From Gekko japonicus (Eukaryota), in assembly GCF_001447785.1 (NCBI RefSeq), contig NW_015173687.1, positions 724,694 to 788,693 of the forward strand: a stretch of DNA of 64,000 nt, written 5' to 3'. Position numbers and translations under genes: made by a program. This document shows, one piece after another, positions 12,830 through 26,982 of the stretch. Numbering within the stretch: the stretch's first letter is position 1; each line of letters begins with the position of its first letter. The notes under the pieces were generated by a model, which had not been told where the DNA came from, ran no database searches, and worked only from the letters and a program-made list of their open reading frames with translations.

Positions 12830-13012
12830 GATAGGGCATTGGTTGCTTGTGCACATTTGGGATAGAACACTGGACATGGCACAAGAAAACCAAGGAAAAA
12901 GTTCTAGCTAAGCTATACCTTATTGGGTGGCCTTAAATATTGAAAGATTGAAATAAGAATTGCATACTTTCTGGAAAACCACATATCTGAAACCTGTTGG
13001 ATGTTCCTCCAG

Positions 13013-13185
13013 CTACGATGAACATGTTCTCCTGTGGGACACCCGAAACATGAAGGAATCATTGGCAGACACCCATGTGCAGGGTGGAGTGTGGCGGCTG
13101 AAATGGCATCCAACAAGGGAACACCTACTGCTGGCAGCCTGTATGCACAATGGCTTCAAAATCCTCAATTGCCAAAGCACCATGG
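13013..13185 (+). CDS. DPH7: DPH7 coding exon 8
   Basis: (S)[14 protein letters not shown]...[10 protein letters not shown]...[10 protein letters not shown]; phase 2 to 1. Confidence 0.95.
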
Positions 13186-13462
13186 GTGAGTGGGGTTTTC
13201 TTTGAGTGAGTGTGGAGGGCTCAAGAGTAGCTTTGAGGAGTTGGTCCCTGGGGCCACTTGCCTGTTTTACAGCCCTCCTCAACTGGTATAACAGTGCACA
13301 CAAAACTTGTGTATGTTTTTGACTACCAACACTCTTAGATGCTTGACTAATGCTTCAAAGAGAGAACTTATCAATTGGGGCTATACATTTGAGGCTTAAG
13401 CACAGAATCTGTAGTACCAGGTATATTGAAATCTTAGCCTTTTAATCACATATGATTTTAAC

Positions 13463-13866: not shown

Positions 13867-15347
13867 CTTTTAACTCTTGTGACTGGGGGGGAGGAGGCAT
13901 GAACATGGCAGCCTGTTAGTATCTAAGGAGTAACTAAGGAGCAAAAACAGAAATTTTGAGGGAAAATTAAAATATATGCAATACTTACCATCATATCAAA
14001 CCTAAATTAATTTTACTGCTTTAACTTAGCATATAAAATTGCAATATTTGATATATTTATGGAATTCAAAAGTTACAAATGCCTTACTTTTGTACAAGCA
14101 AAACTGCAAATATACTCAATACCTGAGAGGAAACTGCAAGCTGATACACCCAATGCTATCTTAGCACATGTACCTTAATTTTGCTTTCTGGTTAGAAAGA
14201 GTTAAACTGGTTAGAACATTTCTCAATAAAACTGTCAGTTGTTGTGAGGCATTGGTACAGTTTCTGCCCCCACCTCCTCCTGATCTTTTTTCTCCCTCCT
14301 GCAAGGTAGGGCAATAAGCTACTTTTTACCCAGCCTGTGGTTATTACCAAATGTGTCACAGTGGTTTGAAGGAGAGGTCAAAAGGACAACAGAAGATGTG
14401 CAGTTGTTGAGAAGCAATGAAAGCCCTGCATGCTTCCCTTGTGAAGATGAGGTATCCTTCTAGGTGCTGAAATACATCTCTGATTTCAGAGCCGTATGTC
14501 TGCAGCTTGCTTACCTTGTCTTCAAAAGTATTTCACTCATTCTAAAAGATAAAGTACTTCATATGATTTTTTTTTTAGTGCTCCCTCAAATTTCCATTTT
14601 TTTTCCTTGGAAAAAATCGTTTTGTCCCCAAATTTTGATGGGTTTCTTTTCCCCCTAGGCCTCCATACCTTTAGTTTTAACTGGACATACATGCACACAT
14701 AATCCAGTGTGTCTGCCTGGGAAACAGATTGATAGGCTGGTAAAAAGTGTGGACTGGATTGTCATAGGTGGCCCATTTGCAACATGACTTAGGCAGCTGG
14801 GGTTTGTGACTCATCTGGACATGAGTTGGAAGGTCAGCTGGCCAGCTTGTACTGCTGCCTGCAAAACCCTATCAAGACAGTCCAGGGGCCTGCTTCTGGA
14901 ATATCAGTAACATATCAGTGGCCAAAAAAGCCTCAACAAAAAAGCCTGACAGGGACCTAGCTTTTATTACTGTAGTACTCACATTTGGCCTGTTAAATTA
15001 CTTTTCCCTGAGGTGGCTTGAAAAAGATTGACTTGTGCATACAGCTGTACAGAAATAATTGGATACAACATCATTTGTGTTCGTTCTTGGAGAGATTATA
15101 GCTGTTACATCTGCTCTCATCTCTTCCCAGCTAAAAGGACCAGTAGTTTAAATCCTGTTAAAGTGGCTGCGTGGAAAAAAGACATTGTTATTGTATTTAG
15201 GATAGGCTGTAAGCTGCTTTCAGTGCTATAGAAAACTGTGATGCGTTAGTTTTAAAGTGACTGTTGTTCTTTAAAGCAGTAGATGTGAATGCCCCACTGA
15301 GTCTTAATTTGTTTTACAAACTACTGTTCTTTTCAATTCATTAGCAG

Positions 15348-15784
15348 AAAACAAAGAGAGATGCCCTGTTCTTTCATCCTATGTCTTGCATAATTCCTTG
15401 GCTTATGGAGCTGATTGGTCAAGGCTCACCCTGAACGATCCCTTGGTATGGTCGACAGAGATGCCAGTGGTTCATGTAGATGAAGGAGCGACAAGAGTGG
15501 ACCTTGAAGTCCAGAATCTGAAGATAGTTTATGAATCTCCCACTGCCACCTTCGATGTGTTGTTAGATGAAGATCAAACCCCTGCCTTGCCAGTCCAAGT
15601 AGAAGGAAGCTTTGACTTTCAAGGACCAGGTCCTGGTGGGAATGGGTCAAATACCAAAGTGTACAACAAAACTGAACTGTCCAAAGCCCAAAGAGAAACC
15701 AGCCTCTTGGCAACATGCTCCTTCTATGACAACGTTCTACATGTTTGGAAATGGGAAACTAGCCAGACTATCTCTTCAGCCTAG
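15348..15784 (+). CDS. DPH7: DPH7 last coding exon (alternative start 15345 via TAG-CAG acceptor)
   Basis: HNSLAYGADWS...LLATCSFYDNVLHVWKW, stop TAG 15782-15784; total spliced CDS 1371 nt (456 aa). Confidence 0.93.
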
Positions 15785-16367
15785 ACATAGTTATCAATAC
15801 TCATTCTGGAGTAAAGTTCTGGCCCATTTTCCTGTCTTCTTTTAGTACCAGGAGAGGTTAGAGGAAGCTGTTGAAGCAGAACTTCTGTGCTGTCCCCATG
15901 CTATATCTATATATTTTCTTACATCAGGTTTCTAGCTTTACTCTTGGGGTCTTGTGGCTCTGAGAGCTTTGAAAACTCCTTGGACACTTCATTGTTGATC
16001 TTTTGGCTTAGTTACATTGCATTAATTGCAGTTGGAAGTGTGTCCTGCTGAGACTTAAGGACCTCAATCATAGCACAAATTCAGTTTATCTGAAGGTTCT
16101 TAAAATTCTGCTAGAAGTATGTTTTAGCCATAACAGTTCCTCCATGAGATAGTATAGGGTTCTACTGCTATCTATACCCTGCAATTTAGTCTTTTTATTT
16201 CCATTGTAAAAAAAAACAAAAAAAAACAGGTCCTTCCTTGGTATGTTGGAAGACTGGGTATGCAGTTGGAAGACTTTGGTATGCAGGAAGAGATAGCCTC
16301 ATTAGCCCCTTATTTTTTGTTGGAGAGTTACGTTTTTCTGGTTATCTTTTTCCAAATACCAACTTAA

Positions 16368-18562: not shown

Positions 18563-18970
18563 CTACCGCACGAAGTTCTTGGGGAAGAGCTTGAAGAGCT
18601 TCCCCTCCTGGCTGGGTTCAAAGCCGTATTTCTCCAGCTTCTCCGCATCGAAGGTGCCTTCCTCGACGTCCTTCTTGATGCTGGGGGCGACGATCTCTTG
18701 GAAGAGGTCGCGGGCGGTGAGGGGCGGCTCGCTGCCTGCGGGGGCGCGGTAGGAGACGTACGGCCGGAGCTTGAAGCCGGTCAGGTCGGGCACCACTAGC
18801 TTGGGCACCATCTCCTGCACCAGCTGGAACTTCCTGTTTTTAGTGAGGAAGCCGGCGTTTTTAGCGCCTCGGCCCTTGTTGAAGGATCGCGGGCCCCGTT
18901 TGCTAGTCCAGGGCGCCATACGGTCGGCGCCACGCACCAGGCCCCGGGTTAGTTCGCCCAGAAGCCCCAT
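18563..18970 (-). CDS. MRPL41: Mitochondrial ribosomal protein mL41, single coding exon, 135 aa
   Basis: [37 protein letters not shown]...[16 protein letters not shown]...[22 protein letters not shown]; position between DPH7 and PNPLA7 matches known vertebrate synteny; splice acceptor 11 nt upstream of the ATG. Confidence 0.96.
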
Positions 18971-18999: not shown

Positions 19000-19747
19000 C
19001 CTCGTGGTGACTCTCTCTGACCAATTTTACCTCAACTTAAAAGCCGCTTTCCTTTTCCTCAGGCACCCAGCAATATCGCTTGTCCTCATTGGCTAAGTCG
19101 CGCACAGCTAATCGCCAGTTCCCATACATGGTTTCCCTCCCCTAGGGCGGGAGCTGTTTTTCTGCCAATCAGAATTAAGGTAATCAGAGATGCCATTTTC
19201 CTCTGAAGTGGGACTTATCTCAGACGTTAGTTGTTATTCACGCACGTGACCGTGTAGTACCGCCCACTCTTGGAATCTTCATATTCTGATTGGGTACGTT
19301 ACTCCCCATCCATTCCCCGCTCCCAATTAAAAGCTCCAACTCGGTTGGCAGTTATTACACACGCGCCTACTCATTGGTGAAAAGATCCCGGGAACTAAAT
19401 AAAGTTTCTGACGTGCTGCCTCTAGCGGTAGAAAACGCCTTGCGCGCAATTTAATGTTCCGGGTTAAAATCGACAGTTGCTCTATTCCGCCGCTCCTTTG
19501 CGATAAAAATACTAGATTTGCCACGATGAAAGGATTCTATTTGACCCCGAAGGTCCCAACGACACCCCTCCGCGGAAGTGACGATTGCGGAAACTACTGA
19601 TCGGAGGCTTCCTGACCTTTTCCCAGTGAACTTTCACACATGATCTTTAGGTCTCGAGTCTCAAAGGAGAGAAAACAACCGTTAGTGGGTCGCGCTGCCC
19701 CCTCCTCTTCCTTTCTCCAGTCTCGGACCCCTTGAGTTGACAGCACC
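19000..19747. promoter_or_regulatory. Bidirectional CpG-island promoter for MRPL41 and PNPLA7
   Basis: Head-to-head ATGs at 18970 and 19748; CCAAT/ATTGG at 19088, 19165, 19289, 19323, 19373; GC box 19145; E-box CACGTG 19243; ETS site CGGAAGTG at 19573 overlapping TGACG. Confidence 0.85.
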
Positions 19748-19774
19748 ATGGGGGATGGACTTTCGCCGCTTCAG
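19748..19774 (+). CDS. PNPLA7: PNPLA7 (NTE-related esterase) coding exon 1
   Basis: accATGg Kozak; MGDGLSPLQ then GTAGGT donor; short first exon as in mammalian PNPLA7. Confidence 0.8.
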
Positions 19775-24239: not shown

Positions 24240-25188
24240 GTAAGTGTGACCCTTATGCTTAATTGTTCCTGGGCAGTAGAGTTTGGGGGGGGGGGGCTGT
24301 GAAATCAACTTGGAGTATAATGTGGGTGGTGGCATGTGGATTTCAAGTGCTTACTTGTTAAGTTGATGTGGGGTAAAGGCCAGTTTCTCCTCCTCTGATG
24401 GAGAGTTTAATGCCCCCTGAAGCCATTTAACCATTTATTTTCTTTTCAGGATGTGTAGAAATAAGAGGAATGGGGGGAAATTTAGCTTCAGTGTAACTGA
24501 CCTTTCACAAACATCAGACTAGTTCTTTTTATCTTCCCAACTCTTTCCTTGCTAGGTTAACTGTACTGTCTTTGTCTGTCCTGAAAAAGTAGGATGTATA
24601 CCAAAGGAAAGGGAAAGCTGGGTTGGGGAGGTAAAGAGAAGGAACATTTGGATTCTGGAGGCTCTTGCTTTGTGACATTCCAATGTCTTTTGTCTGGAAA
24701 CACTCCAGAAAGGAGGGCCACACTGGAGGTTCAGCACCCCCGAGATAAAAGCTGGATGATGCTCACACGGCACCACCCTCTGCAGGAGCCAATCATGTTG
24801 CTATCTGTCATTGTCATTTTTCTCCTGCTTTTCCTCCAAGGAGCTCTGATTGAAGTATACAGTTCTCCCCTTCTTCCATTTTACCCTGTAAAACTAGGGG
24901 GTAAGAGAGTGACTTGCCCAAATGCACATGTGGCTGTACAGGGATTTGAACCCAGGTCTTTCTGGTACACATTGACCTTGAACCAGAAGCAGGCTTATAC
25001 CAAATCAAACATTTGATCCATCTGGATCAGTATTGTCTACTCTGACTGGCAGCTGCTCTCCATGGTCTCAGGTGGAGGTCCAGTTTTCTTTCTTTGCACC
25101 CATCTTATCAGCGAGGAGTGCCCATGTAGCAGGCAAGTGTAGAAGATTGTTTCTGCTTGTCCTTAAAAAACAGGCCTATCTCTTTCAG

Positions 25189-25271
25189 AGCAACCTCAGC
25201 CACAAGTGCCTCAGTATCGGTTTCGCAAGAGAGACAAAGTGATGTTCTACGGCCGCAAGATCATGCGGAAG
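25189..25271 (+). CDS. PNPLA7: PNPLA7 coding exon 4
   Basis: [24 protein letters not shown]-family signature. Confidence 0.95.
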
Positions 25272-25274
25272 GTA

Positions 25275-25669
25275 TGACGGCATGCGCAGAACGTCTGAAT
25301 AATAATGATATCAGGATGCTGTATCTGAGCTATATACAGTGGCTTTTATTTACAGTTATTTACACAGTCCATTCCACCATGCGGTATCCCAGGTTCATAG
25401 AACTGACCGACAAGGTGCTTCGCAATACACTCTTCCACTGGTGTGGAACACTTGCCTCTGGACTACATTACATATATACAGTACTTGCACCAATCAGAGT
25501 CATTTTGCCAACTCATGGTGACATAGTTAATTAGCTGATGCAACCTAGTGCAACTTGCATCTGGTGACCCTGTCACATGACAGTCTTACCTGTCACCTAG
25601 ATCAGTTTAATCTGACATGTGTGCATCATTGGCTGTCATCTTGCATACATATAATACAATATGCCAACA
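25275..25669 (-). mobile_element. Solo LTR (395 bp) inserted in the exon-4 donor site
   Basis: TG...CA ends with inverted termini TGACGGCAT / ATGCCAACA; 5-bp TSD AGGTA (25270-25274 and 25670-25674); CCAAT, TATATA (25473-25478) and AATAAA (25345-25350) in LTR order on the minus strand. Confidence 0.8.
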
Positions 25670-26893
25670 AGGTAAGCCTCTGTAATAAGGTGGAGGAGGT
25701 TGGTAGCAAATTCAGCCTGATAACAGTAATGCCAAGCAATCTCGTCGCATGCCAGAACCCTCCTCTTAGTATTTATGTACACAAGTTGACCTTGGTTTGA
25801 TCTGAGGGTTGCTTTGGGAACTGTACCTACCCCCTCCCCTTATCTCTCATAGAGATAAAATGCTGCAGGGTTAGCTTGTTTTCTGTTGGAAGTGATTGTG
25901 CTCAGTTCTCTACTTGCCTCTGCTGATGGCTTTGCAAACTGTCCGTGCCACATATTTGTATCAACACTTCTTCACAAGGCTCCTGAAGAAACGGATGCTC
26001 TACGTGATTGGTGTTTGGTGCTTGCAACTGAGCTGCAGATAACAGTGCAGGATTGCTCCACAGGGGGAGAGCGGGGCTTAGTTGCTAAACAACTGGCCAA
26101 ATTATCTGATTTATGCTCACACACTAGGAGAGAAGATGAGGAGATTGTGTGTGCGTGTCTTCATGCGCACACGCATGCACACATATATTCCCTTAGAATT
26201 TCACTGCCCATGAAGTGCAGACCGATGTAGAACAAACTGGGGCTTGGGCAGGACTGTGGCCTCCGTAGCCACCAGTGTTCCCTCTTCTTGAGCATGATGC
26301 TAGCCCTCCAGTGGTGAGGTGCTTCTGAACTCTACACCAGTGTTCCCTGAGTGATATTTTCTGAGCTAGGCAAACCATTGGATGCATTGCAAGCCTTGCT
26401 CCTGTAGGTGGCACTCCAGACACAGCTGTCACTAGCTGGACCCTGTGCCCTTGGTCTCCTAGAGCCACCTTCAGGCACCAGTTGCCTGACACACCAGTTA
26501 AATAGCATCTCTCATAGCACACAGGGCTAAAAGAAATGTACTTCAACAGTGGAAATTATTTTATGCTTTCTAAATAGATATAGGTGGAAAACTTGTTGGC
26601 TCTCGCTGTAATTGGAACACTAATCTGTTACAGACTAAAACATCTTGGTTGTTTATGACTCTGGAAACCAGTTCCTGAGTTAAATCAGTAGCACAATTTT
26701 AACCTCAATGTTCAAAGCACTTGGGCATGCCCCTTGTCTGGTCTTCACTGGTACAAACACAAACTGGAGTTAACCCCTTCTTTTGGAGCTGCTTGTTTAT
26801 TGGCCCAGCAGATCAAGAGCTGTGGTGCATTTCTCCTGTCCATTCTGCTACTGAGCCAGGTCTTGCACTTCAAGGAATCTTGCTTCCTTTTAG

Positions 26894-26982
26894 GTAACAA
26901 CTTTGCCAAATACCCTGGTTGGAAATGCTGTGCCTCGGCAGCGGATGCGGAAAAGGGCCAAAGTCTTGTCCTTGGCAAAGAG
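26894..26982 (+). CDS. PNPLA7: PNPLA7 coding exon 5
   Basis: [29 protein letters not shown](R). Confidence 0.94.

Follow-up and report, generated by a model that had tools for sequence, protein, structure and literature searches.

The closest described counterparts of the insertion analyzed here are the copia elements of the corn snake, in which, according to the available portions of PMC4657000 and PMC11948899, insertions of 5,832 bp lengthen the mRNA of OCA2 (amelanistic) and of CLCN2 (stripe) by 397 nt, with stops, and the element is reported in 85 near-identical copies. The locus of Gekko japonicus resembles these cases as a young, multi-copy squamate Ty1/copia in a host gene, with changed splicing and premature stops as the risk, and the domain order of the OCA2 element suggests that it may likewise be antisense. 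However, the snake elements lie inside introns and their exonisation and phenotypes are proven, whereas the gecko insertion is a 395-bp LTR placed on a splice donor, derives from a 4,959-bp parent and is known from sequence; the two are likened by description rather than by sequence.

Introners, as presented in the accessible part of PMC11282704, offer a second comparison, as their target duplication supplies a splice site. In both systems the duplication copies a splice signal, so that an insertion can be tolerated. As DNA transposons, introners create new introns where they land in exons, whereas the gecko LTR sits on an existing donor and ends inside an existing intron, and its second duplication copy is a poor acceptor.

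Within the Pseudoviridae, the available text of PMC1181622 describes the Hemivirus group (Drosophila copia, 1731, Ty5 and Osser) as primed by a half-tRNA, from tRNA nucleotide 40. The gecko family shares with it a single gag-PR-IN-RT-RH frame, a 5-bp target duplication, TG..CA ends and a primer site that matches priming from nucleotide 40, but it inhabits a vertebrate host and has no close protein among the best 120 matches (at most 43% identity).

Poison-exon and alternative-donor splicing coupled to nonsense-mediated decay (NMD), as in SR-protein genes, is conserved, fixed and regulated. The gecko locus has the same layout, an alternative donor that adds an early stop far 5' of later junctions, but it is young and likely polymorphic rather than fixed or conserved, and its donor use is predicted. 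Maize Stonor is reportedly a further precedent. Among papers judged by title or the start of the abstract, with subscription journals outside coverage, we found none on an insertion at the PNPLA7 locus or on a gecko copia family.

The PNPLA7 gene and its surroundings

The window is the whole stretch of G. japonicus DNA that was analyzed, 64,000 nucleotides long. A search with one later exon returned PNPLA7 of reptiles, birds and frogs, with 100% identity in several geckos; the names among the best 120 matches were PNPLA7 or "lysophospholipase," with no PNPLA6 among those shown. Across the window and 150 kb of neighboring sequence, a chain of 35 exons with GT/GC-AG introns yields exactly protein P0036, 1,330 aa in length and labelled Gekko japonicus PNPLA7, with three cNMP domains, an NTE P-loop and a patatin domain. 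With 25271 as the end of exon 4 the frame remains intact, and the same exon 4-5 junction is read across in 11 of 11 homologs among those printed. All 33 internal exons measure 61-206 nt. A search of the assembly (G000) for a further copy or another haplotype of exon 4 gave one candidate, the exon itself, and the protein clusters, being singletons, contained no additional PNPLA7 isoforms.

Several neighboring features were recorded. An intronless gene with a Pfam MRP-L27 domain (18563-18970, minus strand), which we take to be MRPL41-like, lies head-to-head with PNPLA7 across about 780 bp (19000-19750). Coding-looking exons at 13000-13190 and 15346-15785 belong to an upstream plus-strand gene, presumably DPH7-like on grounds of synteny. 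In intron 3, positions 25015-25075 are a short piece of a very high-copy repeat, with a depth above 400,000 in DNA run X2 and many unrelated RNA reads; an X2 contig carries 116 other letters in place of 24967-25084. A bacterial promoter scan, which has no relevance to this DNA, gave chance-level results.

An antisense copia LTR on the exon-4 donor

The features of the insertion site are as follows (the slash within a donor marks the junction).

25189..25271, plus strand: PNPLA7 coding exon 4, 83 nt, ending in AAG, with RNA joints 24239>25189 and 25271>26894
25269..25277, plus strand: upstream hybrid donor AAG/GTATGA, junction 25271/25272, with +4 to +6 formed by the LTR end
25270..25274, plus strand: left copy of the target duplication AGGTA, carrying AG/GTA of the hybrid donor
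25275..25669, minus strand: Ty1/copia LTR, 395 bp, solo as assembled, starting with TG and ending with CA, antisense to PNPLA7
25345..25350, minus strand: AATAAA of the LTR, on the strand opposite PNPLA7
25472..25478, minus strand: TATA-like box of the LTR, a motif match only
25669..25677, plus strand: downstream donor AAG/GTAAGC, junction 25671/25672, the start of the intron before the insertion; its -3 A is the last LTR base
25670..25674, plus strand: right copy of the target duplication AGGTA
26894..26982, plus strand: PNPLA7 exon 5, 89 nt, starting with GTA

A preliminary description of this DNA had proposed that an LTR inserted with a 5-bp duplication that is itself the splice junction, leaving two donors 400 nt apart, and both the coordinates and the sequences agree with that account. 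It had also predicted that use of the downstream donor would read GTA TGA and stop after 92 aa. The TGA at 25275-25277 is indeed in frame on read-through past the hybrid donor, and translation of the joined exons 1-4 extended to the downstream donor gives the 92-aa product.

The LTR is antisense to PNPLA7, since the parent frame, the TATA-like box and the AATAAA all lie on the strand opposite the gene; the TG at donor positions +4/+5 is therefore the complement of the LTR's terminal CA. A sense orientation was rejected on the evidence of these minus-strand signals. Premature polyadenylation of PNPLA7 by the LTR was likewise discarded, AATAAA and ATTAAA being absent from the gene strand, as was a host, repeat-free origin of the 395-bp segment, which belongs to a multi-copy family with 99-100% identity. 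RNA reads of this family pile up at 25341, near the LTR's AATAAA.

Two further observations concern the LTR's own strand. A strong donor-like CAG/GTAAG (25585-25592, minus strand) lies upstream of the TATA-like box and could matter where copies sit sense to genes. The putative antisense LTR promoter would aim at the MRP-L27-domain gene from 6.3 kb, on that gene's sense strand.

A very young half-tRNA-primed copia family

The existence of paired-LTR parent elements, raised in the preliminary description, is borne out by the assembly. A search with the LTR, in which 40 of 404 candidates were scored, gave 99-100% identity for all 40, many of them paired 4,564 bp apart. We fetched nine paired elements, each with two direct 395-bp LTRs bearing TG..CA ends around an internal region; the span is 4,959 bp in eight. 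A perfect 5-bp target duplication flanks six of the nine, as it does the PNPLA7 insertion, and the three without a matching duplication comprise one tandem, one shorter variant and one unexplained case. A preference of the family for splice sites as targets was rejected, since its other copies show diverse duplications.

In one copy, a single stop-to-stop frame of 1,352 residues contains Retrotran_gag_2, a protease-region barrel, gag_pre-integrs, rve (549-639) and RVT_2 (876-1116). The element is assigned to Ty1/copia because integrase precedes reverse transcriptase (RT), together with a copia-type gag and RVT_2. Its primer site can pair over 15 nt with letters 26-40 of tRNA-Met, as encoded by genes of the same genome (L046-L048), consistent with a half-tRNA-iMet primer, and judged by the primer-site definition in the available text of PMC1181622 the parent is a half-tRNA-primed, Hemivirus-type copia. 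Its nearest protein relative among the best 120 matches (8,000 candidates scored) reaches at most 43% identity, over RT-RH of a Podarcis-labelled protein; most of these matches carry no element name.

By the measure of sequence identity, the family is very young. The two LTRs of each of the nine elements differ by 0-2 bases, 29 other LTRs show a mean difference of 0.78 base, and the RT stretches of 34 of the 40 scored are identical over 401 bp. Because short-read assembly can homogenise repeats, the family may look somewhat younger than it is. It is also transcribed: RNA reads leave the LTR end and continue into internal copia sequence (in loose-end rows of 35 reads for run X21 and 7 for X23, and in one X3 contig).

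Irregular copies were also seen. The second LTR of L039 and L023 have a common different sequence beside the LTR at the normal primer-site position; L039 spans 4,645 bp rather than 4,959 bp, has no matching duplication and is perhaps a deleted or variant subfamily, or a mis-assembly. At L034 (1-900), primer-site sequence rather than host flank precedes the left LTR, which would fit either a tandem three-LTR arrangement or an assembly join.

Solo state and a probable empty allele

As assembled, the locus contains one LTR with one intact target duplication. It is improbable, though worth weighing, that a full 4,959-bp antisense copia lies at the donor and that its near-identical LTRs were merged during assembly. 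The small differences within LTR pairs invite such a collapse, the assembly is in 191,500 contigs, and no listed read or contig spans both junctions of the filled site. On the other hand, at least 34 elements of the family are assembled here together with their internal sequence, and 5 of 30 loci have a solo appearance and agreeing 5-bp flanks (one ambiguous at a G run). The LTR in the window also has a variant base of its own at 25598, different from all 29 other copies compared, so the segment is no generic fill. In the reads, this base is no locus marker, as the common base is missing from further members of the family too. If the element were complete, some 5 kb would separate the donors, and harm would more probably come from internal copia pieces being exonised.

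The reads examined comprised 4 of the 24 listed runs, namely a second DNA run of the same species (X2) and three RNA runs (X21, X23 and X3). X2 looks like a proximity-ligation library: its long contigs end at GATC sites (25259, 25799 and 26811) with 4-5 extra letters, and one loose end is a doubled GATC. Its record 5, with 153 letters and a depth of 85, places letter 16 at 25669 and letter 149 at 25802. With a pad of 5 letters allowed for, an LTR-free fragment that starts at the GATC of position 25259 is predicted to place exactly these letters there. The filled allele would instead place 25669 at letter 74-75, with the alignment extending further left, which is not seen in record 5; the alignment ends at 25669 because the A there equals 25269 and the next base differs. 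The empty allele is thus likely present in X2, on the evidence of contig coordinates rather than letters, and the insertion is therefore likely polymorphic. The polymorphism that the preliminary description had suggested looking for is supported to this extent.

RNA junctions

A joint was listed when it was seen in 3 reads from 2 starts, or in a contig. The normal junction 25271>26894 appears in X23 in 3 reads with 3 starts, with 4 more reads carrying exon-5 letters as loose ends, and in X3 in one contig with a depth of 86. X21, of which about 3 in 100 of the run was read, has almost no PNPLA7 depth and leaves exon 5 uncovered. None of the joints listed for the three RNA runs, at low depth, starts at 25671 or enters the LTR. 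The normal junction is identical from empty and filled alleles and gives no information on which donor the filled allele uses; intron depth outside repeats is zero in the RNA, so the carrier genotype is unreadable there. All four database isoforms, which are predictions, read through the upstream junction.

Competition between the two donors

Donors were scored with a leave-one-out matrix built on the 33 other donors of PNPLA7, and by pairing with the genome's own U1. The old, downstream donor scores 10.8, with 3 of the 33 higher, and the hybrid donor 6.2, with 22 higher and 11 lower, in a matrix drawn from one gene only; the preliminary description was right that the old donor is the stronger. 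U1 pairing points in the same direction (8 pairs for the old donor vs 6 for the hybrid, which 27 of the 33 other donors exceed), as do duplex energies of -9.5 vs -5.7, which carry little weight because U-pseudouridine pairs were ignored. This clear difference counts against the reading that we prefer, in which carriers splice mostly at the hybrid donor. That donor is nevertheless plausible, because its score falls inside PNPLA7's own donor range. Donor strength is also context-dependent, as stated in the accessible part of PMC9311317.

The G that the LTR's TG supplies at +5 is worth about 3-4 bits, as the hybrid donor with other +5 bases would score 1.9-3.0. That contribution had been put forward as the reason why the gene survived, which overstates it: the +5 G is absent from 5 of the 33 other donors, two of which are AAG/GTA donors (exon 13 AAG/GTAGAT and exon 30 AAG/GTATTC), and any TG..CA element gives the same +4/+5. 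As a general rule, when the 5-bp duplication of a TG..CA element extends to +3 of an AG/GTA donor, a +5-G donor is rebuilt in either orientation. Moreover, the allele is likely not fixed, and survival therefore need not have been tested. The number of insertions at a donor expected per genome in this way is about 0.03-0.6 (copy number 400-2,000, donors assumed to number 200,000); an LTR landing on a donor by chance is uncommon but not remarkable, and the tolerated ones are those observed.

Two very weak donors elsewhere in the gene were noted in this scoring. The exon-31 donor TGT/GTCAGT, about 61 kb past the window end, and the exon-30 donor score 0.8 and 1.0 bits, respectively, and both are required for the predicted PNPLA7 frame.

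Use of the downstream donor would lengthen exon 4 from 83 to 483 nt. Exon definition disfavors a 483-nt exon; the internal exons of PNPLA7 all measure 61-206 nt. In the resulting mRNA the stop lies 394 nt 5' of the junction, beyond the 50-55 nt limit for NMD, with 30 more introns behind it. The LTR also contains candidate acceptors on the gene strand, which together with the downstream donor would form cassettes.

25355, 25392 and 25400, plus strand: candidate acceptors, with predicted cassettes of 316, 279 and 271 nt, respectively
25581..25601 (AG 25599-25600), plus strand: candidate cryptic acceptor, with a predicted frameshifting cassette of 71 nt
25605, plus strand: weak candidate acceptor, with a predicted in-frame cassette of 66 nt that would add 22 residues

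The predicted 71-, 271-, 279- and 316-nt cassettes all carry stops. Altogether, 4 of the 19 AGs in the LTR score in the low range of the 34 true acceptors (2.6-6.0, with 4 to 12 true acceptors lower).

These features make it possible, though we consider it rather unlikely, that the allele is leaky and hypomorphic, the stronger old donor taking a sizeable share and yielding either the 483-nt exon 4 or an LTR cassette, with NMD lowering the PNPLA7 dose. The downstream donor, near the top of PNPLA7 donors, and the four low-range AGs speak for a leak, and in reporter assays duplicated donors often favor the downstream site. Similarly, the exonisation of copia pieces described for OCA2 and CLCN2 in the available portions of PMC4657000 and PMC11948899 lends it weight. 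Against this, equally high scores are frequent among decoy AGs (elsewhere in intron 4, 8 of 74 reach 4.1 or more), and none of the listed RNA joints involves 25671 or the LTR, an observation tempered by RNA data that are blind to carrier genotype and by NMD, which would hide such RNA. According to the accessible text of PMC10046082, Pnpla7-null mice are normal at birth and die within months; a leak would therefore matter in homozygotes, and a strong one would be selected against. Should the allele be leaky, it would be a partial loss-of-function allele of a choline-supplying enzyme, open to an easy splicing-competition experiment. The corresponding view of the locus as a segregating natural PNPLA7 dosage allele generated by an active half-tRNA-primed copia, with a strong donor stranded behind an LTR and a 483-nt exon or 66-316-nt cassette directed to NMD, is equally tentative; if true, it would allow donor competition over 400 nt to be tested cleanly between two alleles of a vertebrate.

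The NMD-coupled switch and the short ER-anchored isoform envisaged in the preliminary description fare less well. The NMD layout is textbook, but regulation is another matter: we regard it as very improbable that a regulated donor choice couples the PNPLA7 level to NMD or that the 92-aa peptide has an ER-anchored function. The layout permits both, and the product retains a strong hydrophobic segment, with a mean hydropathy of 3.0 over the 19 aa that start at residue 38, and its residues 57-92 include 13 K/R. Nonetheless, the insertion hardly differs from the copies of an active family and is likely polymorphic, hence too young and likely too unevenly spread for an evolved control; no downstream junction is listed, the four predicted isoforms all use the upstream one, and the very stop that makes the isoform would expose its mRNA to NMD.

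Even more doubtful is a two-step removal resembling recursive splicing, in which a 400-nt intron would be excised that starts with the upstream GT, takes in the LTR and ends with the second duplication's AG, rebuilding the old donor and giving normal mRNA. The second duplication does read AG/GT, the introner-type geometry of the available text of PMC11282704, but its AG has no pyrimidine tract; with a score of -6.0 it ranks 17th among the 19 LTR AGs and lower than every one of the 34 true acceptors.

A probably tolerated, probably segregating insertion

The explanation that we favor, with a probability of roughly 60%, is an antisense copia insertion, present as a solo LTR and segregating, whose carriers splice mostly at the hybrid donor and make normal protein. 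A very young Ty1/copia inserted antisense, its 5-bp staggered cut spanning the exon-4 donor of PNPLA7; LTR-LTR recombination would then have reduced the full element to a solo LTR. The insertion allele probably still segregates, as the contig coordinates suggest. We infer that carriers splice mainly at the upstream hybrid donor, which would keep exon 4 at 83 nt, while any leak to the downstream donor would produce mostly stop-bearing mRNA removed by NMD, and would be a cost rather than a control. The insertion is likely a neat accident and not an evolved switch.

In terms of biology, the PNPLA7 insertion would open no new kind of system. Its likely significance is that of an insertion allele that is tolerated and that marks a copia family now expanding in the gecko. 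That family, possibly without an earlier description and possibly expanding at present, is of wider interest than the single insertion, and its expansion parallels that in corn snakes, where such insertions cause color mutants.
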